This document shows positions 1-9,491 of a DNA stretch of 9,491 nt, in pieces (the first letter of the stretch is position 1; every line of letters starts with the position of its first letter). A program made the translations under genes and the position numbers. Under the pieces are notes generated by a model that made no database searches, was not told the DNA's origin, and saw only the letters and a program-made list of their open reading frames with translations. Origin of the DNA: a virus (Duplodnaviria > Heunggongvirae > Uroviricota > Caudoviricetes); IMG/VR virus record IMGVR_UViG_2547132272_000017, positions 1 through 9,491 of that record; one strand, written 5' to 3'.

Positions 1-91
1 ACTCTCCAGGAAACCCGGGGCGGTTCAGTTGTTCCGCCTGTCGCAACATTTCCTGTGCCTGTTTACGTAATTGTTCAGGGGTAAAAGTCAT
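1..91 (-). CDS. Partial ORF (N-terminus only; continues past the left window edge), hypothetical protein
   Basis: ATG at 91..89 on the minus strand, 11 nt after the helicase stop (TGA, 105..103). Reverse complement of 1-91 is open and reads MTFTPEQLRKQAQEMLRQAEQLNRPGFPGE. No clear Shine-Dalgarno; only 30 codons visible. Confidence 0.25.
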   Translation of the reverse strand, partial: MTFTPEQLRKQAQEMLRQAEQLNRPGFPGE

Positions 92-102
92 TGTCTGGTT
101 GT

Positions 103-1494
103 TCAAAAGAAACGCTCCATCTTACTGCTGTCAGTTCGTTTGTTGCTGTATCTGCGCGGCTGAGGCTGCTGCATTGGGGTGGAAAGAATCTGTGCGCTTT
201 CCTGATCCACAGGCAGAAAATGTCCGTTATAAAAACGCCGATAAATCGTCCCCAGAGAACCGTTACGTTGTTTCGTGATATTGATTTCTGCGATGCCCCT
301 GGCCTGCGTATCCGGGTTGTACACTTCATCCCTGTAAAGCATCAGAATGATGTCTGCATCCGCCTCTATTTCTCCGGAATTTTTCAGGTCTGAGTTCATG
401 GGGCGTTTATTGGGCCTGGACTCCACACCGCGGGAGAGCTGACTCAGCGCAATCAACGGAAAACCACCGGATTTTGCCAGGCCTTTAAGCCCCTTTGAGA
501 TTTCACCAACGGCAAGGTCATGACGCCCTGTGGTTCGGGTTTTTATCAGCCCGAGATAATCAACCACCACCAGCGCCGTTTCCGGATGTTTAATCAGGTG
601 ATGTTTCGTTGTTGCGCATATCTCATCAATGGTCAGGTTCGCCTGGTCCACCATCCAGATATTGCGCCCGGTCATCCGCCCCACTCCTTGTGAGAAACGT
701 GCCCAGTCTTCGTCTTCAAAGTGAGTGACAGATTTCAGGCGTGATACCGGCATTCCTCCAGCCGCAGATACCATGCGTTCACCAATCTGGATGTTCGCCA
801 TTTCCATTGTGAACAGAAGAACACCATGCCCCTGCTCAGTCACCTTGTCGATGATATCCAGCGCCAGTTCGGTTTTGCCCATCGAAGGACGTGCAGCAAT
901 AAATACCAGGTCGCCAGGCTCCATGCCGCCCGTTTTTGCGTCCAGTTCATCAATACCGGTCATCAACGTCCTGGATTTCTCCAGCCCCTGATTCCGGCAT
1001 TCAACACGCTCAACCACTTCCGGAAGCACATCATCAATATGTACCGGCTGAATAACGCCCTTTTCCGTCGACAATGAGGCCATCATGTTCTGCGCATCCT
1101 TCAGAGCATCTTCAGCTGCTTCACAGGTATGCGCATCACGTAATTTCTGCAGCGCCTCATTCAGTGTTTTTTCTGCATCACGCAATGCGGCATTACGCCG
1201 CAACGCCGTAACATAGTGCTCCAGTGACGACTTCACCCAGGTTTTGCGCCCGGTATCAGTAATCACCGGGGCAAGTTCCGGCATCTCATTACACAACAGC
1301 ACAGGGTCAATCACGCCGGACACACGGGCCTGTCTGCAGATGCCTGTGTAGATATCCCGGTACGGTCGTACAGAAAAAACGTCCGCCGGTAGTGTGGCCA
1401 GAATATCCATCACTTCAGGATCTGCCCCTCGCAGAAAAAACGCGCCAATGACAGCGCCTTCCAGGTCATCGTTACGCCAGACAGGAGAAGTCAT
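103..1494 (-). CDS. DnaB-family replicative DNA helicase (phage-encoded)
   Basis: Long ORF with Walker A motif (ARPSMGKTELALD) and overall DnaB-like RecA-fold layout. Start placed at the ATG at 1494 (MTSPVWRND...), preceded by GGAGG and overlapping the upstream gene's stop as ATGA. The ORF track's start at 1533 is a TTG without an RBS. Confidence 0.85.
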   Translation of the reverse strand: MTSPVWRNDDLEGAVIGAFFLRGADPEVMDILATLPADVFSVRPYRDIYTGICRQARVSGVIDPVLLCNEMPELAPVITDTGRKTWVKSSLEHYVTALRRNAALRDAEKTLNEALQKLRDAHTCEAAEDALKDAQNMMASLSTEKGVIQPVHIDDVLPEVVERVECRNQGLEKSRTLMTGIDELDAKTGGMEPGDLVFIAARPSMGKTELALDIIDKVTEQGHGVLLFTMEMANIQIGERMVSAAGGMPVSRLKSVTHFEDEDWARFSQGVGRMTGRNIWMVDQANLTIDEICATTKHHLIKHPETALVVVDYLGLIKTRTTGRHDLAVGEISKGLKGLAKSGGFPLIALSQLSRGVESRPNKRPMNSDLKNSGEIEADADIILMLYRDEVYNPDTQARGIAEINITKQRNGSLGTIYRRFYNGHFLPVDQESAQILSTPMQQPQPRRYSNKRTDSSKMERFF

Positions 1495-2381
1495 GCTGCC
1501 ACACCTCCGATATGTGCACGGTAACTTTCCCAACCAAACACCAGGCAGTTACGCCCACCATCAGTAACGCGATCCACAATCCGTTCACCAATGGACTCCT
1601 TAAGTTGGTCAAATGTCAGATTACTAATCAAAATTGTCGGTAAAACGCTTTCGTAACGTGCATTGATGATTTCCTGCAGGATGGTTATCTCTGTTGGCGT
1701 ACCGAACTGCACACCAACCTCATCGATGATGAGCAGGTCCAGCGATACAAAATGGTCAATAACTTCATCTTCAGTGCGTTCAGAATTGTGACGCCAGGTA
1801 TTTTTCACAGCGCGGGTCAGTCGCATGACATCCGTAATTTCGACAGTCGCCAGGTGGTGGCGAATAATATTTTTTGCCATTGATACAGCCAGGTGATTTT
1901 TCCCGGTACCGCAATTGCCAATCATGATCATGCTGGTACCCGCAGCAAGACACTTCTCCCATGAACTGGCATAGCGCCGACAAGCCTCAAGATTTCTCTG
2001 TGCGTCAGCATTCACAGCCTGGTAGTTCTCAAACTCGCAGTCCTGGAAGCGGCGGGCAATACCAGCTCTGTCAAGTAATTCATGAACTTTCAGGATGCGT
2101 AACGCCTCCTGTACCTGATCCAGTTCATTCGCAATGCAGGTCGGGCAACCAGACACCCGTTTGATGGTTTCCCCACGAACATCTGGCCCTTTCAACACCA
2201 GACGTGTGTATTTCCCGTGTTTCTCACACTCAGCAGTTTCCTCGCTTGTCAGCCAGTGTTCACAGCGCCACGGACGCTTCCCGGCACGGGCAAACTGCAT
2301 CTCCTCCTCCAGTTCCGCCCTGCGGTTGAGCAATTGCGCTTTATCGTGTTGTGCGTAGTGTTTTTTTAACTGTTCAAACAT
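1491..2381 (-). CDS. DnaC/IstB-like AAA+ ATPase, putative helicase loader / replication protein
   Basis: Walker A (GNCGTGKNHLA) and Walker B (LLIIDEVG) motifs. Cys-rich N-terminal region (RCEHW, ECEKHG, GCPTC). SD GAGGTGA 7 nt upstream of the ATG at 2381. Stop overlaps the helicase start (ATGA). Confidence 0.8.
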   Translation of the reverse strand: MFEQLKKHYAQHDKAQLLNRRAELEEEMQFARAGKRPWRCEHWLTSEETAECEKHGKYTRLVLKGPDVRGETIKRVSGCPTCIANELDQVQEALRILKVHELLDRAGIARRFQDCEFENYQAVNADAQRNLEACRRYASSWEKCLAAGTSMIMIGNCGTGKNHLAVSMAKNIIRHHLATVEITDVMRLTRAVKNTWRHNSERTEDEVIDHFVSLDLLIIDEVGVQFGTPTEITILQEIINARYESVLPTILISNLTFDQLKESIGERIVDRVTDGGRNCLVFGWESYRAHIGGVAA

Positions 2382-2400
2382 TGTTCATCACCTCGAAAAA

Positions 2401-3378
2401 TCACCAGTTGAAGTTCGTTGAACCGTAGTCCTGCTCACTGAATCCCGAGATCGGGAGGCCGGTAGTTCGCCCACCTCCGGGAGCGGCTGGCTGTTGCCAG
2501 GATTCCTCGAAATGGCGATCGGGTCCAAAGAACGTCGCGGCCTGCTTCACGAACTGTGTGCCTGTATTTCCTGTAGCACGTACCCAGGCGGCATACCGCT
2601 TCACACCATCAAGCATGGTCTCCGGTTTTATTCCCTCCCTGATACGGGCTTTCCAGGCTTTGAAGGCTGCTGACTTGGAATTGCCACCAGCACGTTTGGG
2701 ATATTCCTGCCAGGCCTGTTCAAATTCCGGTGAATATTCCTGTCGGGCAGAACGCGCTGGTGCAGACGCGTCAGCGGATGCGCCAATAGTGTTTTTAGTC
2801 TCCGTTGTAATCTCTGTAGTAATCTCTGTATTTGTATCAACATTCGGCGTATCCCCTGTTCCGTTATGACGTTGGGGGGTGTTCCGTTTTAACGTAATAG
2901 CTGTATCGCTGATTGCGTTATTGCTGTTACTTTCTGGCGAAACAGAAGAAGGAGTAGTAATGGCAGCAATTGCCTGTGGGTTGATCCCGACAAACAAAAT
3001 ATTGCTGCATTTCACACCATCGAGCATTTCCACCGTGCGTAAATCCAGGGAAATAAACCCGGCATCACGAAGGCGCTTCAACGCATCCGCGGTTTCCCTT
3101 TTCCCGAAACCAAACTGCTCAGCAAACGCCTGATAACTTCTTTGCAGCTTGTCCCCCTGAAAACGCTTGCGATATCCCAGCAAAGCCCCGGTATGCTCAT
3201 CCCTGACTTCTGTCGGGCGGTACCAGTAAACGATCTCTGAGAGCAGGGCGATAGCGGTCGCATCCGGACGACCACTGGGTAGCCGAATATGTTTCCACCA
3301 GTTCGCTGGTGTGACATTGCCGGAAATATTAATTTGACCAATAGCTATAACTTCCGGTGTGGGGGCGTAACGACTCAT
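2401..3378 (-). CDS. Phage replication initiation / replisome-organiser protein (O-like)
   Basis: 325-aa ORF immediately upstream of the DnaC-like and DnaB-like genes, with a strong SD (AAGGAGG). N-terminal region resembles phage replisome-organiser proteins; a low-complexity linker (TEITTEITTE) separates it from a C-terminal domain. Assignment rests on position and architecture, not on a searched match. Confidence 0.6.
   Translation of the reverse strand: MSRYAPTPEVIAIGQINISGNVTPANWWKHIRLPSGRPDATAIALLSEIVYWYRPTEVRDEHTGALLGYRKRFQGDKLQRSYQAFAEQFGFGKRETADALKRLRDAGFISLDLRTVEMLDGVKCSNILFVGINPQAIAAITTPSSVSPESNSNNAISDTAITLKRNTPQRHNGTGDTPNVDTNTEITTEITTETKNTIGASADASAPARSARQEYSPEFEQAWQEYPKRAGGNSKSAAFKAWKARIREGIKPETMLDGVKRYAAWVRATGNTGTQFVKQAATFFGPDRHFEESWQQPAAPGGGRTTGLPISGFSEQDYGSTNFNW
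2807..2830. repeat. Perfect tandem 12-bp direct repeat (gtaatctctgta x2) inside the O-like gene
   Basis: Read directly: 2807-2818 and 2819-2830 are identical, followed by a partial third unit (tttgta). Encodes the TEITTEIT linker on the minus strand. Confidence 0.7.
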
Positions 3379-3674
3379 ACAGCCTCCTTACGCGGCATAA
3401 CAATGGTGTAACCCCGGGCAGGCTGGAGCCGGGCTTTTGCATCAATAGTGAGCGTTGCAATTTTTCGGATACGCAGATACCCTGCCCTTTCCAGGGTCAG
3501 GGTTTCTCTGAACATTGCCTGTTTTGAACAGCAACAAAAATCGGCAAGGACCTGGTGATCAATAACCCTCTCACCTTCACCGTCTGAAGAACCCGACATC
3601 AAAACACGCAACATAATCAGGCGCTGAATCGGATTATCGAAAACACTTCCGCATACAAACTGAAAACAGTTCAC
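3375..3674 (-). CDS. Hypothetical protein (99 aa, GTG start)
   Basis: GTG start at 3674 preceded by GGGAGG at good spacing. Start overlaps the upstream stop (GTGA) and the stop overlaps the O-like start (ATGA). The C-terminal half (QVLADFCCCSKQAMFRETLTLERAGYLRIRK) may be a winged-helix-like segment; this is unverified. Confidence 0.5.
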   Translation of the reverse strand: MNCFQFVCGSVFDNPIQRLIMLRVLMSGSSDGEGERVIDHQVLADFCCCSKQAMFRETLTLERAGYLRIRKIATLTIDAKARLQPARGYTIVMPRKEAV

Positions 3675-3895
3675 ACGGCACCTCCCAGGCGTTTAAACAT
3701 TTTTCCGGACTGAAACGCCACCAGTGGGTAACTGATGGTGTAGTTACGCCCCAGTAATTCACACACGACTTTCTGGCTTTCGGTACTGACCAGGCAAACC
3801 CGCAGAACATGGCCGTTGCTGGTGGCAAACCACTGCCCCACACGGGGGCAACGGTTGTATCGGTGATACAGGGAATTAACGACGCGGCGAATCAT
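3671..3895 (-). CDS. Hypothetical protein (74 aa; alternative start at 3910 would give 79 aa)
   Basis: ATG at 3895 overlaps the stop of the upstream 220-aa gene (ATGA), indicating translational coupling. No recognisable domain. Confidence 0.45.
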   Translation of the reverse strand: MIRRVVNSLYHRYNRCPRVGQWFATSNGHVLRVCLVSTESQKVVCELLGRNYTISYPLVAFQSGKMFKRLGGAV

Positions 3896-4554
3896 GGGCG
3901 CACTTCCCATTGATTACGGCGGAAAGCAGTGTGATTCAGGCTGGTTTCAGCCTCATGGAATGCTTCAATGCAGCTCTCGTAGTACCGCATTGTGCGCAGA
4001 CTTAACCCAAGCTGAAGCATCATCAGACCATCAAGGGTGATGTAATAACCACGCAGGGAATCGCCATACACGTGGTAAGTACCCGGAATGAAATTACGGG
4101 AGAAGAATTCACGTGAGCAGTTCAGATACTCGATTTTGTCGACGATGTTCTGGTGCATGCGCTTAAAGTGGCAGGCAACATGCAGGGAGAAAATAACAGC
4201 TTTGCCGTTGACGACTTCGATTTTCAGGTATGGGGAAGTTGGGACTGTAGCCATGATGGCAGCCTCCGTATGCAATGGATAACTTCCACCACCGGAAACG
4301 CCAATTTCACTGGTGGTGAACTGAACGGGGTTGGCGTAACCGGCGCATACGGAAACCGGCGCATCTTTCGATGCCCCCGCCCAGCCCACCATAATCTGGA
4401 TGTGAGCAAATGCGGACGATAAAAAAGACGCTGGCGCGTCGTATATCGCCGTATGCAATTCCAGGACGCCAATCCCGGCACCCGCTTTATAAGGTGCCAG
4501 AACAGTGTAACGTCCCGAAATTGCAGAATCAATATTTAGGCTTGAAACATTCAT
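3892..4554 (-). CDS. Hypothetical protein (220 aa)
   Basis: Longest ORF in this interval, on the same strand as the flanking operon; ORFs in other frames are shorter shadows. No clear SD upstream of the ATG at 4554 and no recognised motif. Confidence 0.55.
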   Translation of the reverse strand: MNVSSLNIDSAISGRYTVLAPYKAGAGIGVLELHTAIYDAPASFLSSAFAHIQIMVGWAGASKDAPVSVCAGYANPVQFTTSEIGVSGGGSYPLHTEAAIMATVPTSPYLKIEVVNGKAVIFSLHVACHFKRMHQNIVDKIEYLNCSREFFSRNFIPGTYHVYGDSLRGYYITLDGLMMLQLGLSLRTMRYYESCIEAFHEAETSLNHTAFRRNQWEVRP

Positions 4555-4631
4555 ATGCTTACTGGTATTTTTGTTGACGTTCTTGGATTCTTGGGCCTGC
4601 TTTATGCAGTTGCCTGTATCAACGTTGAGCG

Positions 4632-4657
4632 AGCCGGGTTACTACCCGGCTTTTTTT
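4632..4657 (+). terminator. Intrinsic terminator-type hairpin (8-bp GC-rich stem AGCCGGGT/ACCCGGCT, 4-nt loop) followed by T7 on the + strand
   Basis: Read directly: stem 4632-4639 / 4644-4651, T-run 4651-4657. Canonical for + strand transcription; on the minus strand it sits immediately after the Rha stop codon, preceded by an A-tract with no U-tract after it. Confidence 0.6.
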
Positions 4658-5388
4658 CACCGCTGCCAACCAATAACCTGAAATAACCCCATTTTCGGGT
4701 GATACCAGCGAGTCCCTCGCGGTTCTGCTTCCTCCATAACCCGATAAAAAGCAGCCATAAACGGTTCCACAGCAACAATTGCGCGACGTGACAACAATCC
4801 GTCCGGCGTCATGAACTCATGGGTGTCTGTAGGAATTTGATAGGCGTTCACCAGATTGCGGCATTTATCATCTGACAAACCGGTTTTTGCTTTCAGTTGG
4901 CGATATCCGGCATAGCCCTCACGAATGGTGCCCTTTTTGATTTGCTCAACTGTTTCGGCAACATGGCTGACTTTTTCTTCCACCTGAGTGATCCGTTTCT
5001 GCTGGCGAACAGCTTCAAGAGCCATCGCTGCAACCATTTCGATTTCGCTCATTGGCTTACGGATCTGTTCTTCCAGTTCGCGCCAGCGATCTACCAGGCG
5101 AGCAGTGAATTCAGGACAGAGCTGTGCGACGACAATGATGCTGTCGCGCTTACCTTGTTCTCCTTCAAACAGGTAATGCTCATATTGAACTTTAAAACCT
5201 AAGTTATTGATTCTTTCGGAAACCTCAATTTGAGGAGACCGGACAACGCCACCTTTGGCTAATGTTTCAATAGTGCGTTTCACATTGTCATGACGTTTAC
5301 CCACCAGCTCTGCGATTTCAACGCTGGTCATGGATACTTTGTCGTTAAAAATTGCAGCGTTCATTGTTGCCTCTTTACGAAAAACCAT
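4657..5388 (-). CDS. rha: Rha-family phage regulatory protein
   Basis: N-terminal signature SMTSVEIAELVGKRHDNVKRTIETL is typical of the Rha domain. Two candidate in-frame starts, ATG 5388 (SD AGAGG) and ATG 5364 (SD AAAGAGG); the longer is annotated. Confidence 0.8.
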   Translation of the reverse strand: MVFRKEATMNAAIFNDKVSMTSVEIAELVGKRHDNVKRTIETLAKGGVVRSPQIEVSERINNLGFKVQYEHYLFEGEQGKRDSIIVVAQLCPEFTARLVDRWRELEEQIRKPMSEIEMVAAMALEAVRQQKRITQVEEKVSHVAETVEQIKKGTIREGYAGYRQLKAKTGLSDDKCRNLVNAYQIPTDTHEFMTPDGLLSRRAIVAVEPFMAAFYRVMEEAEPRGTRWYHPKMGLFQVIGWQR

Positions 5389-5433
5389 GATTAACCTCTA
5401 GCTTTCCCCGTCTTTTCCGCACTTCTTGTACGG

Positions 5434-5442
5434 TGATATTAT
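5434..5442 (+). promoter_or_regulatory. Extended -10-like element TGaTATTAT, candidate promoter for the + strand gene at 5536
   Basis: Sequence TGATATTAT sits about 95 nt upstream of the ATG at 5536. The -35 is weak (tttccg). It lies in the 147-bp divergent spacer between the Rha start and the + strand gene. Confidence 0.3.
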
Positions 5443-5535
5443 TCAGTGCCGGATGCTTACCCGTGTCCGGCGCACGACCACACGTAGCCGCGTGTTGGTC
5501 TCCATTTTCAATTCAGCTCTCAATGGAGGATAAAA

Positions 5536-5781
5536 ATGTCAAATACCCAACATCTAAAAGCGGCGGATCCCGTTTTACGCCTCAATGCACTTGAAACGGT
5601 TGTTCGGGCGATGCTGTCGAGCATGACACCCGAGCAAATAAACAAAGCGCGATTGATTGCTACTCGTGGTGCCCAATTAGCAGCCCTAGATCCATTGCTC
5701 ACTCCTGCGAATCGCGAAGATGTAGAGCACATTCAGGGGATGGTTGATTATTTATTCGCCCATATTCCTGATCAGATTTGA
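5536..5781 (+). CDS. Hypothetical protein (81 aa), convergent with cro, inside the rightward early region
   Basis: Strong SD GGAGGA 5 nt before the ATG at 5536. Protein-like composition (MSNTQHLKAADPVLRLNALETVVRAML...). A hairpin plus T-rich tract lies downstream. The antisense ORF 5520..5732 has biased Ser/Ala/Arg content typical of a shadow frame. Confidence 0.55.
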   Translation: MSNTQHLKAADPVLRLNALETVVRAMLSSMTPEQINKARLIATRGAQLAALDPLLTPANREDVEHIQGMVDYLFAHIPDQI

Positions 5782-5813
5782 TTCTTTGAACCATAATTTC
5801 AGCGATACGAATG

Positions 5814-5844
5814 GCCGCCGCTTCGAGCCTGGCGGCTTCTTTAT
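5814..5844 (+). terminator. Hairpin (GCCGCC / GGCGGC stem, 11-nt loop) followed by TTCTTTAT, between convergent genes
   Basis: Stem 5814-5819 / 5831-5836 read directly, T-rich tract 5837-5844. Lies 33 nt after the + gene stop and 27 nt after the cro stop on the other strand. Confidence 0.4.
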
Positions 5845-5862
5845 CTGCATAAGAGCTACCCA

Positions 5863-6108
5863 TCACTTCTCGTCCTCTGTGTGCGCTAAGCTTGGGTGTG
5901 GAAAAAGCTCTGGTAGGTCTGGACGAAATTCATACGCTTGGATCTTTCCGTCGACAGCTGCAACCAATAACGGCACAAATTCTGGTGAAATCTTGTTCTT
6001 GCAGTTCAACCAATCGCAGACTGTTGACTGGGCCTTTCCGCATCGCTTGGCTAAGGCTTGCTGACTTCCAAGAATCTCAATAGCTTTCTCTATGGCTTTA
6101 TGTTTCAT
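5863..6108 (-). CDS. cro: Cro-like HTH regulator (YdaS-type)
   Basis: Divergent from the cI-like gene across the operator region. Pattern AIEKAIEILGSQQALAKRCGKAQSTVCDWL...EFRPD matches the YdaS/Cro-like HTH family. Start set at ATG 6108 (MKHKAIEK...) with SD AGGAGA; the ORF track's longer start lacks an RBS. Confidence 0.75.
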   Translation of the reverse strand: MKHKAIEKAIEILGSQQALAKRCGKAQSTVCDWLNCKNKISPEFVPLLVAAVDGKIQAYEFRPDLPELFPHPSLAHTEDEK

Positions 6109-6227
6109 AATCGCATCTCCTATTGAACGCATAATAACAACAGGAAAAGCGATATTCAACGTTAAACCTAGAACATTTATCGGAAAGCCGATAGACTAGC
6201 CAGGATAGAGAGGGGAGGAAAATCGCA
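6109..6227. promoter_or_regulatory. Divergent control region (OR analogue) between cro and cI, with operator-like sites
   Basis: 119-bp spacer between the divergent HTH genes. Contains the palindrome TATCGGAAAGCCGATA (6178-6193) and weaker related copies at 6109-6124 and 6139-6154 (core ATCG-N6-CGAT). Confidence 0.7.
6131..6159 (-). promoter_or_regulatory. PR-like sigma70 promoter for cro (-35 TTGAAT, 17-bp spacer, -10 TATTAT, minus strand)
   Basis: Minus-strand reading: -35 is the complement of 6154-6159, -10 the complement of 6131-6136. This leaves a leader of about 16 nt carrying the cro SD. Confidence 0.5.
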
Positions 6228-6920
6228 ATGACATTTTCAGAACGACTTGATTTAGCTATGCGCAACGCAAAATTTACGCAAGGTAGGCTGGCCAAAGAAG
6301 TGGGTATGGCTCAGTCCAGTGTCAATCAACTACTTAACAAAGCCAACGGTTCCAGAAAAACAGTCGAAATAGCAAAAGTTTTGGGCGTTAACCCGGAATG
6401 GCTCGCATCGGGTGTTGGCCCAATGGAAATCGTGACCTCTGCAGACTCACACCAAATACGTAACATTTCTGAAGATTGGGTTACTGATTCGTATGTCGTG
6501 GATGTTTTAGACATCAGATATAGTTGCGGACCTGGTAGTTATAACTCTGATTTTCCTGACATTGTCAGATCTATAGCGATAGAACCAGGATACGCATCAA
6601 GAGTTTTTGGCGGCAGGCCAGCATCAGCAATCAAAGCAATAAACGCCCACGGCGACAGTATGAAAGGCACAATAGACCCTGAAGACTTGGTATTTGTAGA
6701 TGTATCAGTTCGCACATTTAATGGTGATGGTATATACGCCTTTACATACTCTGGAACATCGCACATCAAAAGACTTCAAAAAATCAAAGATACTCTAACG
6801 GTGATATCTGACAACCCAGCTTACAAGGATTGGGCTATCGAACCGGAAGACTTCGAACAACTTCACATTGACGGAAAAGTAATTGTCAGTTGGCCCATGA
6901 CACTACACCGTTTTGCATAA
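6228..6920 (+). CDS. cI: CI-like prophage repressor: N-terminal HTH plus C-terminal LexA/S24-type autopeptidase
   Basis: HTH (FTQGRLAKEVGMAQSSVNQLL); S24 motifs GDSM with a Lys about 38 residues downstream (HIKRL); possible Ala-Gly-type cleavage region (LASGVG). SD GGAGG 10 nt upstream of the ATG. Confidence 0.9.
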   Translation: MTFSERLDLAMRNAKFTQGRLAKEVGMAQSSVNQLLNKANGSRKTVEIAKVLGVNPEWLASGVGPMEIVTSADSHQIRNISEDWVTDSYVVDVLDIRYSCGPGSYNSDFPDIVRSIAIEPGYASRVFGGRPASAIKAINAHGDSMKGTIDPEDLVFVDVSVRTFNGDGIYAFTYSGTSHIKRLQKIKDTLTVISDNPAYKDWAIEPEDFEQLHIDGKVIVSWPMTLHRFA

Positions 6921-6938
6921 GCAAAAATCATTTAACCC

Positions 6939-6964
6939 GCCCACTCTTAAGTGGGCTTTTTTTT
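6939..6964 (+). terminator. Rho-independent terminator after cI (stem GCCCACT / AGTGGGC, loop CTTA, T8)
   Basis: Read directly: stem 6939-6945 / 6950-6956, T-run 6957-6964, 19 nt after the cI stop. Confidence 0.8.
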
Positions 6965-6971
6965 GGAAAAA

Positions 6972-7012
6972 AATCGATAAACCGATTGACAGACAAAATC
7001 GGCAAACCTATT
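6972..7012. promoter_or_regulatory. Two operator-like sites (OL analogue) overlapping the PL-like promoter
   Basis: AATCGATAAACCGATT (6972-6987, overlaps the -35) and AATCGGCAAACCTATT (6997-7012, overlaps the -10) share the core ATCG-N6-C(G/T)AT with the OR palindrome. Centre-to-centre spacing is 25 bp. Confidence 0.55.
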
Positions 7013-7014
7013 AT
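6986..7014 (+). promoter_or_regulatory. Near-consensus sigma70 promoter (TTGACA, 17 bp, TATTAT): PL analogue
   Basis: -35 TTGACA at 6986-6991, 17-bp spacer, -10 TATTAT at 7009-7014; about 50 nt upstream of the ATG at 7064. Confidence 0.7.
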
Positions 7015-7063
7015 CATGGCATAGGTATCGAACTCACCAAAGCAATTATAGAGGATGAGAAAA

Positions 7064-7561
7064 ATGTCATCGTATATGGGGTTACCAACAAATCAGCACG
7101 ATGCTCTTGAGAATATTCAACTCTTAGTAGGGGCTGGTGCACTACTGTATAGCAGCAATAATCCTGAGTTAATTGAACTTGCCAGCTCCATCCTGGCTGT
7201 AACTCAAAAATACAGCCTCACCGCGTCGCGTTTATGCAAACAAAATTTAGCTATTAATTCCCAGAATCGGATTCGCACCCAACGCGAAGCCTGCGGCTTA
7301 ACAACCGCCGAACTCGCCAGGCTGCTCGATCTCGATGAAGAAATTATCATCCAGTGGGAGAGCGGAGAGTATGAACCAACTATCAGTATGCTTATCCCAC
7401 TGGCAAATATTCTTGGCTGCGATCCGATGTGGCTGTTAACTGGCGAAGTTACTCCTCCGGAGCAACCAAAAAGTGAGGAGCAGCAACACCATGACGCATC
7501 TCAACAAGTTTGCTCCTTATCTCGCGAAGCTCTTCTACGGAAGAACCAATACCAATGGTGA
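7064..7561 (+). CDS. XRE-family HTH protein with an uncharacterised N-terminal region (166 aa); first gene of the leftward operon
   Basis: SD GAGGA 8 nt before the ATG at 7064. HTH_XRE signature in the C-terminal half (IRTQREACGLTTAELARLLDLDEEIIIQWESGEYEPTISMLIPLANILG). No Arg-rich N-type motif. Confidence 0.7.
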   Translation: MSSYMGLPTNQHDALENIQLLVGAGALLYSSNNPELIELASSILAVTQKYSLTASRLCKQNLAINSQNRIRTQREACGLTTAELARLLDLDEEIIIQWESGEYEPTISMLIPLANILGCDPMWLLTGEVTPPEQPKSEEQQHHDASQQVCSLSREALLRKNQYQW

Positions 7562-7689
7562 CATAATCGCCGCTTCGCCCCTCAAGGTACATGCGAACAT
7601 TTTTATCAATCATTGCGGAAACAGTCTCAATATGAAAACACTTCTGAGACTCGCTATATAGCAGAACATATAAGTCAGCTGAGGAAGCC

Positions 7690-8055
7690 ATGAAAAAGTT
7701 CGAAAACATAACTGTTCTCCATGTTGATGACTTTGATTATACAAACCCGGAACCTCTCCCGGAGGTTGTAAAGGCAATAGATGTTGCCGATATAGTGATT
7801 AGAGGAAAGAGAATTGTCAAAAACAGGCTCGCATGCACTTCAGGAGCAATGACAAAAACAACCTCACAACAAGATGATTATGAAGGCATTTGTCTGGAGC
7901 CGGACTCATTTGCGGTAAATGTTTATCATTTATTGCATGCAACACAGGTATTACATATGTCCAGTAATCACGAAACAAAAACACTTGGCAGCGAAATTCT
8001 GAATTTTGCATGTGAATATGCAAAAGCTGCTGCCGAAAAAGAATTAGCGCAATAA
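7690..8055 (+). CDS. Hypothetical protein (121 aa)
   Basis: ATG at 7690 preceded by GAGGA. AT-rich codon usage matching the neighbouring + strand genes. No recognised motif. Confidence 0.6.
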   Translation: MKKFENITVLHVDDFDYTNPEPLPEVVKAIDVADIVIRGKRIVKNRLACTSGAMTKTTSQQDDYEGICLEPDSFAVNVYHLLHATQVLHMSSNHETKTLGSEILNFACEYAKAAAEKELAQ

Positions 8056-8253
8056 CAACAAATATGCCATGAACGTTTATTACGGTTTTATCGCCGGGGA
8101 TTGTTGCAACCTTTATTCATAGAGGTAACTCAGTTATGACTTTCCTGAAAAATAAGGCATCGTATAAAACTGCCTGCCTCATTGCACAACATGGAGATTC
8201 TTATCTTCATATAGCCAACCTGTATTTGCGCAAAGCATATGGGAGATAAATAA

Positions 8254-8442
8254 ATGAAAGAAAAACAACAGAACATAACACATGAAAAAGTAAGAGTGTT
8301 GTTGACCATTGAAAATGGGAAAGTGATTTACTCAAAACATCTGTCGGATGATGAATTCGTTGGCTGCATGGATACATTTCTGTGGATGGTAAAAAGAGCG
8401 GGTTACACGATTATTCCACCAGCAAAGGAACAAACATTATGA
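8254..8442 (+). CDS. Hypothetical small protein (62 aa), translationally coupled to the downstream gene
   Basis: SD GGGAGA 7 nt before the ATG at 8254. Stop TGA overlaps the next ATG (ATGA at 8439-8442). Confidence 0.55.
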   Translation: MKEKQQNITHEKVRVLLTIENGKVIYSKHLSDDEFVGCMDTFLWMVKRAGYTIIPPAKEQTL

Positions 8443-9020
8443 ATTATTCAGAGTTCCGACCAGAAGTTACGCCACATGGCATAAAAATTGGCAATACAAC
8501 CATTGATTATGTTGAGGCCGTACAGCGACTTAATGATGGTGAATACGATTATCCAAACTCACACGGTTTAAGAATCATGCAATGTATTGCTGAAGCCGAT
8601 GATGCAGGGTTGCTGGGACGATTTTCAGTCGATATGAAAGTTGCTCAATGGCGATGGCTGTATGTGACTACGTTTATAAATGAAGAGAAAGACAAGAACG
8701 GTACCGTTGATATCCCTAACGATAATGGAACTACAGATCGCGCAGTTATTTACAAGGGGAAACATGGTTGCCTGAGTATCTACCCCGGACCACTTCGCAT
8801 TGCCCTGCAAAACCATGTCGAATGGGGATTTATTGAAAAATATGGCGAAGCTGAAGGCATGGGGCGAGTTCTGTTTCTCTATCAAAAAATGCTCATCGCA
8901 GATCCTGATAATGGTTTCATTATCTCTGCTATGGGGCGCGAAGGGCTTGAACTCCTTCTGGATGAAATGATTCACGATCTGAATACTCATGGTATGCCAG
9001 AAGCGCCAGTGACACATTAA
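8439..9020 (+). CDS. Hypothetical protein (193 aa)
   Basis: ATG at 8439 with SD AAGGAA 8 nt upstream and ATGA overlap with the 62-aa gene. The ORF track's longer form starts at a GTG (8382) with no RBS. Soluble-looking, no recognised catalytic motif. Confidence 0.65.
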   Translation: MNYSEFRPEVTPHGIKIGNTTIDYVEAVQRLNDGEYDYPNSHGLRIMQCIAEADDAGLLGRFSVDMKVAQWRWLYVTTFINEEKDKNGTVDIPNDNGTTDRAVIYKGKHGCLSIYPGPLRIALQNHVEWGFIEKYGEAEGMGRVLFLYQKMLIADPDNGFIISAMGREGLELLLDEMIHDLNTHGMPEAPVTH

Positions 9021-9027
9021 ATATTAA

Positions 9028-9052
9028 GAAGAATATAATTCTTCCGTTTTTT
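9028..9052 (+). terminator. Candidate intrinsic terminator (AT-rich 7-bp stem GAAGAAT / ATTCTTC, loop ATA, T6)
   Basis: Read directly, 8 nt after the stop of the 193-aa gene. The stem is weak (two G-C pairs), so efficiency is uncertain. Confidence 0.45.
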
Positions 9053-9065
9053 ACTAACCGTTTAT

Positions 9066-9173
9066 ATGAAAAGCAACCGTGAATTAAGCAGAGTAAAACT
9101 GATTTTAATCCTTGCCACAGTGCTGACACTAACTGAAATCATTATTCTCTTTATTGCGCTGTCAGTCGGTTAA
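9066..9173 (+). CDS. Candidate small hydrophobic peptide (35 aa, single predicted transmembrane helix)
   Basis: ATG at 9066; MKSNRELSRVK followed by a hydrophobic stretch (LILILATVLTLTEIIILFIALSV). No SD; below the ORF-track size cutoff. Confidence 0.25.
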   Translation: MKSNRELSRVKLILILATVLTLTEIIILFIALSVG

Positions 9174-9196
9174 AAATATCGGGATACCACAGACCA

Positions 9197-9385
9197 ATGA
9201 GACTGTATTTCACAATAGTAATTTTACTGGCAATTATCGCATGCATTTACGGATTACTCGTTCCGTTCCTTATATCCATGAAGGATACGATAGCAGTTAT
9301 TTCTGGCTTTGCACTGGCGTTTCTGACCCCGCCCTGCATTTATGCCATTTACAAGGGTCTTTCTTTCACTAAGGATAAAAGATGA
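9197..9385 (+). CDS. Small membrane protein (62 aa, two predicted transmembrane segments, charged C-terminus)
   Basis: Hydrophobic segments FTIVILLAIIACIYGLLVPFLI and IAVISGFALAFLTPPCIYAIY. Weak SD. Stop overlaps the next ATG (ATGA). Confidence 0.5.
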   Translation: MRLYFTIVILLAIIACIYGLLVPFLISMKDTIAVISGFALAFLTPPCIYAIYKGLSFTKDKR

Positions 9386-9477
9386 AAAAAATTATTTTTG
9401 CTTTAGCCATTGTTCTGCCGACTATTGGCCTTGTCGGTTGCGATCGCGTTGAACCAGGTAATGGCTTTGTTGAATAA
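9382..9477 (+). CDS. Tiny putative lipoprotein precursor (31 aa; signal peptide plus lipobox LVGC)
   Basis: SD AAGGA 6 nt before the ATG at 9382. MKKIIFALAIVLPTIGLVG|CDRVEPGNGFVE: n-region, h-region and lipobox Cys at residue 20. ATGA-coupled to the upstream membrane-protein ORF. Confidence 0.4.
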   Translation: MKKIIFALAIVLPTIGLVGCDRVEPGNGFVE

Positions 9478-9491
9478 ATCGAACTTTTGCT

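Follow-up and report, generated by a model that had tools for sequence, protein, structure and literature searches.

A probable P4/Gifsy-1-type RNA-gated operon head upstream of the replication genes of a phiP27-like Escherichia coli prophage

In phage P4, the RNAs seqA (isrK) and CI (C4) lie in this order behind the promoter PLE (PMC3632133), and are followed by an antirepressor-type gene (epsilon) and then by the replication genes (alpha). The isrK-orf45-anrP locus of Gifsy-1 has been dissected experimentally and its promoter mapped (Hershko-Shalev et al. 2016, PMC4825925); switching on anrP requires that orf45 be translated, whereas the peptide itself is not needed (PMC4825925), and IsrK and STnc1160 are highly transcribed in Gifsy-1 lysogens (PMC7067206). 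The immI region of P1 and P7 (c4-icd-ant) carries an RNA of the same C4 family (Rfam RF01695, RF03163). According to Citron and Schuster, the a'/b' loops of the P1 RNA were reportedly found in 1990 to pair with sites a2/b2 and to occlude the ribosome-binding site of the first cistron, silencing the coupled downstream genes. Here we describe a locus that resembles these systems, at positions 3375-4554 (minus strand) of a 9,491-nucleotide (nt) stretch of DNA (IMG/VR record IMGVR_UViG_2547132272_000017, positions 1 to 9,491), which we refer to as the window. An initial annotation of the window had read the region as three unknown protein genes of 220, 74 and 99 amino acids (aa), inserted between a rha gene and the replication module at the place that holds cII in lambda.

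We consider it probable that the region is the head of an RNA-gated operon of the P4/Gifsy-1 type, in a phiP27-like (Shiga toxin (Stx) 'Eru7'-type) lambdoid prophage of E. coli. As predicted from sequence, its anatomy comprises an IsrK/C4 switch, a target site that covers a Shine-Dalgarno (SD) sequence, a Rha cistron, and overlaps that run from Rha through the 74-aa (B74) and 99-aa (C99) genes into an O-like initiator gene, followed by DnaC-like and DnaB-like genes. The element clearly belongs to an RNA system that is already known, and its context, at the head of a lambdoid replication operon, is not described in the literature that we searched.

The IsrK/C4 tandem and its target sites

The elements at the head of the operon, in order of first position along the minus strand, are as follows.

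3892-4554, minus: annotated 220-aa open reading frame (ORF), from the ORF list and checked
4504-4532, minus: candidate PisrK/PLE-like promoter, -35 TTGATT (4532-4527), 17-nt spacer, -10 TACACT (4509-4504), +1 at about 4497
4421-4497, minus: isrK-like small RNA (sRNA), the equivalent of P4 seqA, Rfam RF01394
4473-4466, minus: site b1, ATTGGCGT, within isrK
4457-4449, minus: site a1, TGCATACGG, within isrK
4309-4396, minus: C4/CI-like antisense RNA, Rfam RF01695
4255-4392, minus: orf45-equivalent leader frame, 46 codons from the AUG at the C4 5' end
4352-4345, minus: C4 single-stranded segment a', CCGTATGC
4337-4331, minus: C4 single-stranded segment b', ACGCCAA
4305-4298, minus: site b2, ATTGGCGT, downstream of C4
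4274-4262, minus: site a2, TGCATACGGAGGC, overlapping the SD
3892-4254, minus: Rha-domain protein of 120 aa, from the internal ATG 4254 (M101), SD GGAGG

Both Rfam RNAs lie within the first 100 codons of the 220-aa ORF and on its strand. In the Rfam scan, each matches its full model well above the gathering score (isrK, 61.8 bits against 50; C4, 80.5 bits against 45, E 5e-15), and a sub-threshold c4-a1b1 match overlaps isrK. The isrK-like sRNA consists of two 5' hairpins, which carry the target sites b1 and a1, and an intrinsic terminator (GACGC-GCCA-GCGUC-U6, 4440-4421; an independent terminator scan gives 4440-4427 plus the T-run) that falls at about codon 40 of the ORF. C4 folds as two hairpins enclosed by a long closing stem. 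Compensatory changes occur in 5/10 pairs of the isrK hairpins across 13 phages; in C4, none of the 27 pairs is broken in 13 phages, and 9 pairs carry compensatory double substitutions. The candidate promoter also lies inside the annotated ORF, downstream of its ATG at 4554, in the place of the mapped Gifsy-1 isrK promoter and of P4 PLE, and its hexamers are invariant in 8 phiP27-like relatives.

The isrK-C4 tandem was present in each of 14 related loci scanned, including those of phiP27, ASU11, SfV, cdtI, ST64B, VT2-Sakai, P13374, phiV10, a Yersinia phage, APSE-2 and several IMG/VR prophages, and the leader was found in 310 GenBank phage records. Other Rfam matches (SorX/SorY at 4604-4659 on the plus strand, Trp_leader and mir-3116) scored far under their gathering scores and were discarded.

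The C4 segments a' (CCGUAUGC) and b' are exactly complementary to the isrK sites AUUGGCGU and UGCAUACGG, and a second copy of both target sites lies just downstream of C4. There the a2 copy extends to UGCAUACGGAGGC and therefore covers the GGAGG (4267-4263) that lies 8 nt before ATG 4254: the predicted pairing, GUUUCCGUAUGCG/UGCAUACGGAGGC, includes the GGAGG, and the complementarity of the C4 loop to a2 spans 13 nt including G-U pairs. No further 8-9-mer site for a' or b' occurs in the window beyond those at 4457/4473 and 4274/4305. Across the phages compared, a2 abuts or overlaps the SD, and it co-varies with a' over at least 8 distinct loop sequences in 13 phages. Among 127 leader copies we counted 22 (a', b') combinations, with both target copies changing along with the loops. 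Such loop-target covariation, judged on sequence, is what marks the mechanism of P1 c4 and P4 CI, and it also marks immunity specificities that can be exchanged.

Two further observations concern the leader copies. The a' and b' types reassort independently among the 127 copies, and some relatives carry two or three tandem leader-Rha cassettes (L016, L033, L037, L038, L045, L049, L052, L090 and others).

The order of elements is that of Gifsy-1: promoter (a candidate here), isrK with its terminator, C4-like RNA (STnc1160), b2/a2, SD and cargo ATG, with the C4-like RNA overlapped by a leader ORF of about 45 codons that starts at the C4 5' AUG. The two loci differ in setting and cargo. The Gifsy-1 tandem lies between antQ and anrP, downstream of Q, whereas here it lies in the early-right operon directly upstream of replication genes; the Gifsy-1 leader ends in an ATGA overlap with anrP, whereas here the leader is in frame with its cargo; and the Gifsy-1 cargo is AnrP, whereas the cargo here is a Rha-domain protein that is not homologous to it (a direct comparison of the Rha half with AnrP gave no similarity, E 0.8). 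The likeness to P4 extends to the position of the candidate promoter, the order seqA (isrK) then CI (C4) (PMC3632133), and the succession of RNAs, antirepressor-type gene and replication genes. Both loci were also formerly read as protein, as the 'cI gene product' in P4 and as Ash here. The downstream proteins of the two are, however, unrelated, and the present locus belongs to a lambdoid prophage that also has a LexA-like CI protein. The P1/P7 immI region shares the C4 RNA family, but no icd or ant homolog is found here, and the cargo chain continues into replication genes.

Coding evidence in the 220-aa frame

The 220-aa ORF carries several protein-level labels. PGAP (the Prokaryotic Genome Annotation Pipeline) names it 'ash family protein'; it matches Pfam Phage_ASH over residues 16-108 (E 1e-17, 64.9 bits against a gathering score of 26) and Phage_pRha at 123-203, and PHROG 995 ('transcriptional regulator') matches its whole length at 1e-95. 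With these matches the ORF no longer counts as a gene for an unknown protein, as first annotated. On the PGAP and Pfam evidence it could be a real two-domain Ash-Rha protein, with the RNA motifs embedded in it or secondary, and the frame itself lends some support: in 67/69 relatives it runs without a stop for 100 codons or more before M101, and stops are depleted in it. We nevertheless consider such a protein unlikely.

All three ORFs of the region are under constraint. In the 220-aa ORF, evolution is protein-like only from the internal ATG 4254 onwards. In a comparison with 26 relatives, codons 101-219 show a ratio of nonsynonymous to synonymous substitution rates (dN/dS) of 0.07, with changes at codon positions 1/2/3 of 72/50/437. 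Codons 1-100 show a dN/dS of 0.57 and changes of 419/371/423, with no codon periodicity; dN/dS rises to 1.6 over the isrK part. The Ash-matched region is thus not evolving as coding sequence, stop-codon avoidance being the sole coding-like trait seen. ATG 4254 has a strong SD and is present in 69/69 distinct relatives, whereas ATG 4554 lacks an SD and precedes the conserved candidate promoter, with the isrK terminator following at codon 40 or so. The first 300 nt of what had been annotated as a single protein gene hold both Rfam RNAs together with a candidate promoter and an intrinsic terminator. In VT2-Sakai, phiV10 and APSE-2, moreover, antirepressor-type genes are preceded by the same leader, and there it occupies intergenic DNA that carries no annotation.

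Across 72 relatives, the two alternative frames show 47 and 69 new stops and the leader frame from 4392 to 4254 shows none; this leader frame, identified by comparison with the Gifsy-1 sequence, is here in frame with the Rha ORF. The orf45-equivalent has no codon-position bias and a dN/dS of about 0.5. The stop-codon avoidance weakens a purely non-coding leader, a reading that we set aside, but it is explained equally well by a need for ribosome transit, as with Gifsy-1 orf45 (PMC4825925). An N-terminally extended Rha isoform is possible, because the leader frame stays open and is fused in frame to Rha.

The RNA switch has as its cargo the 120-aa Rha protein that starts at M101, a regulator of the antirepressor-like or winged-helix kind. 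It reaches the Pfam threshold for PF09669 (Phage_pRha, 30.7 against a gathering score of 29.9), whereas the 220-aa ORF falls below it (28.7). The Rha part also matches PHROG 518 ('Rha-like', 9e-14), and does not reach the NCBIfam TIGR02681 threshold (37.8 against 45.95).

The history of the Ash family bears directly on the two-domain reading. The relevant P4 regions (record L177) are these.

8168-8584 of P4: 'cI protein' ORF
7888-8175 of P4: epsilon

Pfam PF10554 matches residues 22-85 of an obsolete P4 coding sequence (CDS), 'cI gene product (AA 1-137)', and the matched stretch holds the CI RNA, found by the Rfam C4 model at 8420-8507. The P4 epsilon protein, which derepresses the helper, matches PF25738 and not PF10554. 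Because PF10554 matches the P4 'cI' ORF over the CI RNA rather than epsilon, the 'Ash domain' is a conceptual translation of the CI/C4 RNA locus, and its founding member acts as RNA (PMC3632133). Earlier annotators had made the same link at the protein level: SfV orf37 is annotated 'immunity region', and ST64B sb41 'similar to P4 ORF199'. Rha/Ash proteins of unknown function are described directly upstream of cI in the Stx-phage types Eru6, Eru7 and Eru9 (PMC8951638). A survey of P4 satellites took PF10554 as its epsilon profile (PMC8628076); given the matches above, we reject the equation of Ash with epsilon, and PF10554 is not a marker for P4 epsilon. The reading of the locus as an RNA switch amounts to an annotation correction for a very common prophage locus, routinely labeled 'ash family protein' or 'Rha/Ash domain protein of unknown function'.

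A separate observation was made in phage P13374 (L172), where Rfam sRNA-Xcc1 matches at 3023-3106 (79.6 bits against a gathering score of 53) beneath a 48-aa CDS annotated 'antirepressor antB'. This CDS may be another RNA that has been read as protein.

B74, C99 and the O-like initiator

The genes that follow the Rha cistron are listed below.

3671-3895, minus: 74-aa ORF (B74), ATG in an ATGA overlap
3375-3674, minus: 99-aa ORF (C99), GTG in a GTGA overlap
2401-3378, minus: O-like initiator gene (325 aa), starting at 3378 in an ATGA overlap
1491-2381, minus: DnaC-like loader gene, after a 19-nt gap behind the O-like gene and with its own SD
103-1494, minus: DnaB-like helicase gene, in an ATGA overlap with the DnaC-like gene; end of the chain

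The ATGA, GTGA and ATGA overlaps that lead from the 220-aa ORF into the O-like gene were as first annotated, coordinates and junctions included. The chain does not, however, continue unbroken from the upstream rha gene, which is separated from the chain head by a 102-nt intergenic gap. None of the three ORF proteins has a sequence relative in the Protein Data Bank (PDB). None resembles CII either, as originally noted: Pfam, NCBIfam, PDB sequence and fold searches gave no match to it, Pfam, NCBIfam and PDB sequence searches gave none to Ren or other known regulators, and no PADLOC defence model matches the 120-aa Rha protein, B74 or C99.

B74 is a real gene by evolutionary criteria, since its dN/dS is 0.1-0.2, and the annotation of the 74-aa ORF as translated stands to that extent. 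Its homologs all start with MIR (mostly MIRR), which supports the start at 3895 and eliminates a 79-aa alternative from ATG 3910. Its sole match is PHROG 1153 (function unknown, 2e-43), and no Pfam match, DUF4222 included, was found at E up to 0.1. The family is narrow: its 52 clusters come almost entirely from E. coli, and when 1.84 billion proteins were searched exhaustively, 19 representatives turned up. A match to a 1695-aa repeat protein (P0107) is compositional and does not indicate a relative, and no similarity was found to the positional analog in P4, ORF151. An AlphaFold model with a predicted local distance difference test (pLDDT) score of 84.6 shows an N-terminal helix and a five-stranded SH3-like barrel, whose fold matches are weak and generic (KOW/Tudor/SH3 in the PDB, uncharacterized barrels in BFVD; E no better than 2e-3). 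In Salmonella and Serratia, a DUF4222 protein occupies the place of B74 upstream of C99. The DUF4222 protein is of the same size, lies in the same place right upstream of C99/initiator and has the same 4-nt overlap, and alignment of the two family alignments by hhalign (B74 against PF13973) gave E 5e-5 over 52 columns with a probability of 66.6%. B74 is possibly related to DUF4222.

The genomic context of B74 varies on its downstream side. A leader-Rha cassette precedes it in 67/68 evaluable IMG/VR loci, sometimes as two or three tandem copies or with an extra 64-aa gene, and B74 always lies directly upstream of an initiator gene or of a C99-initiator pair. It is found directly before a phiP27-type initiator with a different N-terminal winged helix in about 48 loci, before the same O-like initiator without C99 in about 8, and before C99 plus the O-like initiator in 11. 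In 66 GenBank phage records, B74 has a Rha or antirepressor gene on one side and 'replication protein O' on the other, with several initiator types. We also observed that the B74 homolog is intact and conserved, yet unannotated, in the RefSeq records of ST64B (L178, 3001-3222) and phiP27 (L002, 5004-5225).

C99 (dN/dS about 0.05) aligns with positions 3-93 of the 223-position profile PHROG 4617, 'replication initiation protein' (E 1e-27). Its 48 homologs are 94-121 aa long, mostly 98-106 aa and stand-alone, and the full-length ones each consist of one winged-helix domain of about 100 aa; they are spread over the Enterobacterales, in Escherichia, Enterobacter, Klebsiella, Salmonella, Serratia, Pantoea and Yersinia. 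The motifs GEGER and FCCCSKQAMF are conserved, with GEGER and CC invariant among homologs. The model (pLDDT 83.3) has winged-helix topology, and the best PDB fold matches are the N-terminal domains of staphylococcal plasmid RepA (4pql, 4pt7, 5kbj), weak at E 6e-3; these rank ahead of MarR-type regulators, all matches being weak. A 55-residue stretch of C99 also aligns by BLASTP with the N-terminal winged helix of the phiP27-type initiator (29% identity, E 2e-5). Homology to replication accessory proteins, one of the outcomes that the initial annotation had named as telling against it, was thus found in part and for C99 alone. C99 shares a fold and detectable sequence similarity with the HTH_36/plasmid RepA-type initiator N-terminus (phiP27 L17; pSK41 RepA 4pql/4pt7/5kbj), and unlike such initiators it is stand-alone, with no linker or loader-recruiting domain, and has a conserved CCC motif. 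C99 and its homologs have no C-terminal domain that would recruit a helicase or loader, and C99 is therefore not an initiator itself. It shows no similarity to the N-terminus of its own neighbor initiator, of which it might have been a paralog, or to P4 Cnr, its positional analog.

An initiator gene follows C99, with a 4-nt overlap, in every evaluable locus except Serratia, whatever the helicase system; in the Serratia exception, an insertion sequence element interrupts the initiator downstream of C99. A 99%-identical initiator also occurs without C99 (L009), and in Salmonella and Serratia C99 occurs with DUF4222 and without Ash-Rha or B74. A tblastn search (E up to 1e-3) found no C99 in 50,697 GenBank phage records. 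We note also that C99 is common in enterobacterial prophages, with 126 IMG/VR matches and clusters of up to 192 members. C99 is most likely an optional DNA-binding accessory or negative regulator of initiation that acts at or near the origin.

These contexts also bear on the proposal that a coupled trio of novel proteins forms one new regulatory or host-interaction module in place of cII, which we regard as highly improbable. The overlapping stop and start codons are real, and B74 indeed has no annotated function and a narrow family. The trio is nevertheless not a unit, as the three follow-on arrangements of B74, the presence of the same initiator with and without C99, and the occurrence of C99 away from the other two all indicate; two of the three have family assignments, and 4-nt overlaps are operon-wide. 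What survives of the original suggestion is a regulatory element at the cII position that bears on lysis-lysogeny or replication; it is built from a known IsrK/C4 RNA and a Rha ORF rather than from three novel proteins.

A narrower version of the same idea would make C99 alone a functional analog of lambda CII, setting lysogenization frequency without acting in replication. C99 matches cII in size and in position relative to O, it has a DNA-binding fold, and several sources label it 'transcriptional regulator'. It is, however, a winged helix and not the CII fold; beyond its own family its sequence relatives are initiator N-terminal domains only; and it is dispensable beside a 99%-identical initiator and present in none of the 50,697 sequenced phages. 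We therefore regard a CII-like role as quite unlikely, and prefer an accessory role of C99 in initiation.

In the O-like initiator itself, a DNA-binding domain at the N-terminus is joined by a TEITTEITTE linker to a DnaD/DnaT-like domain at the C-terminus. It matches PHROG 270 at 5e-75, and its C-terminus PHROG 1701, 'DnaD-like helicase loader'; its N-terminus is 54% identical to a Salmonella homolog that likewise follows a C99 gene. The DnaC-like protein matches Pfam IstB_IS21 (2e-15) and the DnaB-like protein Pfam DnaB_C (9e-73), and PGAP annotates the 95%-identical cq9 prophage of E. coli in agreement with both calls.

The lambda origin lies within the O gene. In the present window, short direct repeats occur in the linker part of the O-like gene (2701-2895) and are candidate origin iterons: TGTTCCGTTATGACGT / TGTTCCGTTTTAACGT at 2857-2895, ATATTCCTGCCAGGC twice at 2701-2748, and a 12-nt tandem repeat at 2804-2834 that encodes TEITTEITTE. 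A role for C99 as a competitor or modulator at the iterons is the most economical guess.

The 4-nt overlaps run throughout the operon and are located at conserved exchange joints. The gene junctions share GGAGGTGCGCCCATGA (here at 3885-3900), so the upstream proteins all end in ...EVRP. In many relatives an extra 64-aa gene is inserted exactly at such joints (for example at 3795-4010 in L021 and 3585-3790 in L097), and the joints therefore seem to be points of cassette exchange.

Gating of the replication operon and its prophage setting

Together, these elements appear to suggest a mechanism. The promoter at 4532-4504 would start the isrK RNA (4497-4421), which would end at its own terminator, and the read-through RNA would carry C4. 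By analogy with P1 c4, P4 CI and Gifsy-1 IsrK, C4 would block translation initiation of the leader/Rha cistron, and the short isrK RNA may titrate or remodel this block. As the downstream cistrons would depend on coupling, an untranslated head would expose the operon to loss of translational coupling and to Rho-dependent polarity, and could thereby silence the whole replication module. The switch would then gate the replication genes as P4 CI gates alpha, and would provide a second, RNA-based layer of immunity alongside the CI protein. The tight coupling of the chain is what such an RNA gate needs, and is also typical of the whole operon.

Several points weigh against this interpretation. The candidate promoter matches the consensus at 8/12 positions only, and for this reason a consensus scan does not report an isrK promoter. 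AnrP is not homologous to the Rha protein, so that the function of the Gifsy-1 cargo is not transferable. The open, stop-depleted leader frame described above means that the orf45-equivalent part, at least, is probably traversed by ribosomes. Control of the downstream genes by polarity is a step that we infer, and the DnaC-like gene has its own SD; transcripts from the CI-controlled early promoter may feed the operon too. For B74 and C99, the suggested functions come from fold, from weak homology and from genomic position, and the link between B74 and DUF4222 is moderate (hhalign probability 67%).

We put forward a broader picture tentatively, as a conjecture that we consider less likely than not. 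A P4-like IsrK/C4 switch together with CI might gate replication in lambdoid phages of the phiP27, SfV, ST64B, cdtI and 'Eru6/Eru7' types, including common Stx2 phages; the loops, with their 22 a'/b' combinations, might define RNA hetero-immunity groups; B74 and C99 might be hitherto unrecognized trans-acting modulators of origin firing; and PF10554 would denote an RNA locus. The presence of an IsrK/C4 switch ahead of the replication genes points to a way in which Stx phages that are not of the lambda type may control replication and induction, and hence toxin dose, and the exchangeable loops might set hetero-immunity between co-resident prophages. The locus also provides a starting point for testing how Eru7-type Stx phages control their replication.

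By gene content, the window is the early region of a phiP27-like prophage. Its order is a YdaS/Cro-like gene, then a Roi/Rha gene of 243 aa, then the coupled chain, and the repressor lies on the opposite strand.

6228-6920, plus: LexA/S24-type repressor

E. coli chromosomes, 95-96% identical, are the nearest records. Of 5426 complete E. coli genomes, 1353 match some part of 3300-4700, and just 81 carry it whole.

The junction upstream of the chain recalls that of lambda cII and OOP, in its place between the cro-side regulators and O and in carrying a small RNA element; it differs in having no CII-like protein and in that the RNA is the sense-strand IsrK/C4 rather than OOP. On the plus strand, 4542-4659 contains a promoter-like sequence (TTGAAA-18-TATTTT with TG), back-to-back with the isrK promoter, and a strong terminator after it (stem 4631-4652 plus T7). 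The pair would yield an RNA of about 80 nt whose end would fall on the upstream rha gene's stop codon, in a place that recalls lambda OOP. This stretch has no Rfam family match and is kept in 74 loci.

A bssS-family gene (5536-5781, plus; named from PGAP in the cq9 prophage) lies between the cro-like gene and the 243-aa Roi/Rha gene, on the opposite strand within the early-right operon. It has its own terminator-like hairpin (5817-5836, plus) and looks like a moron.

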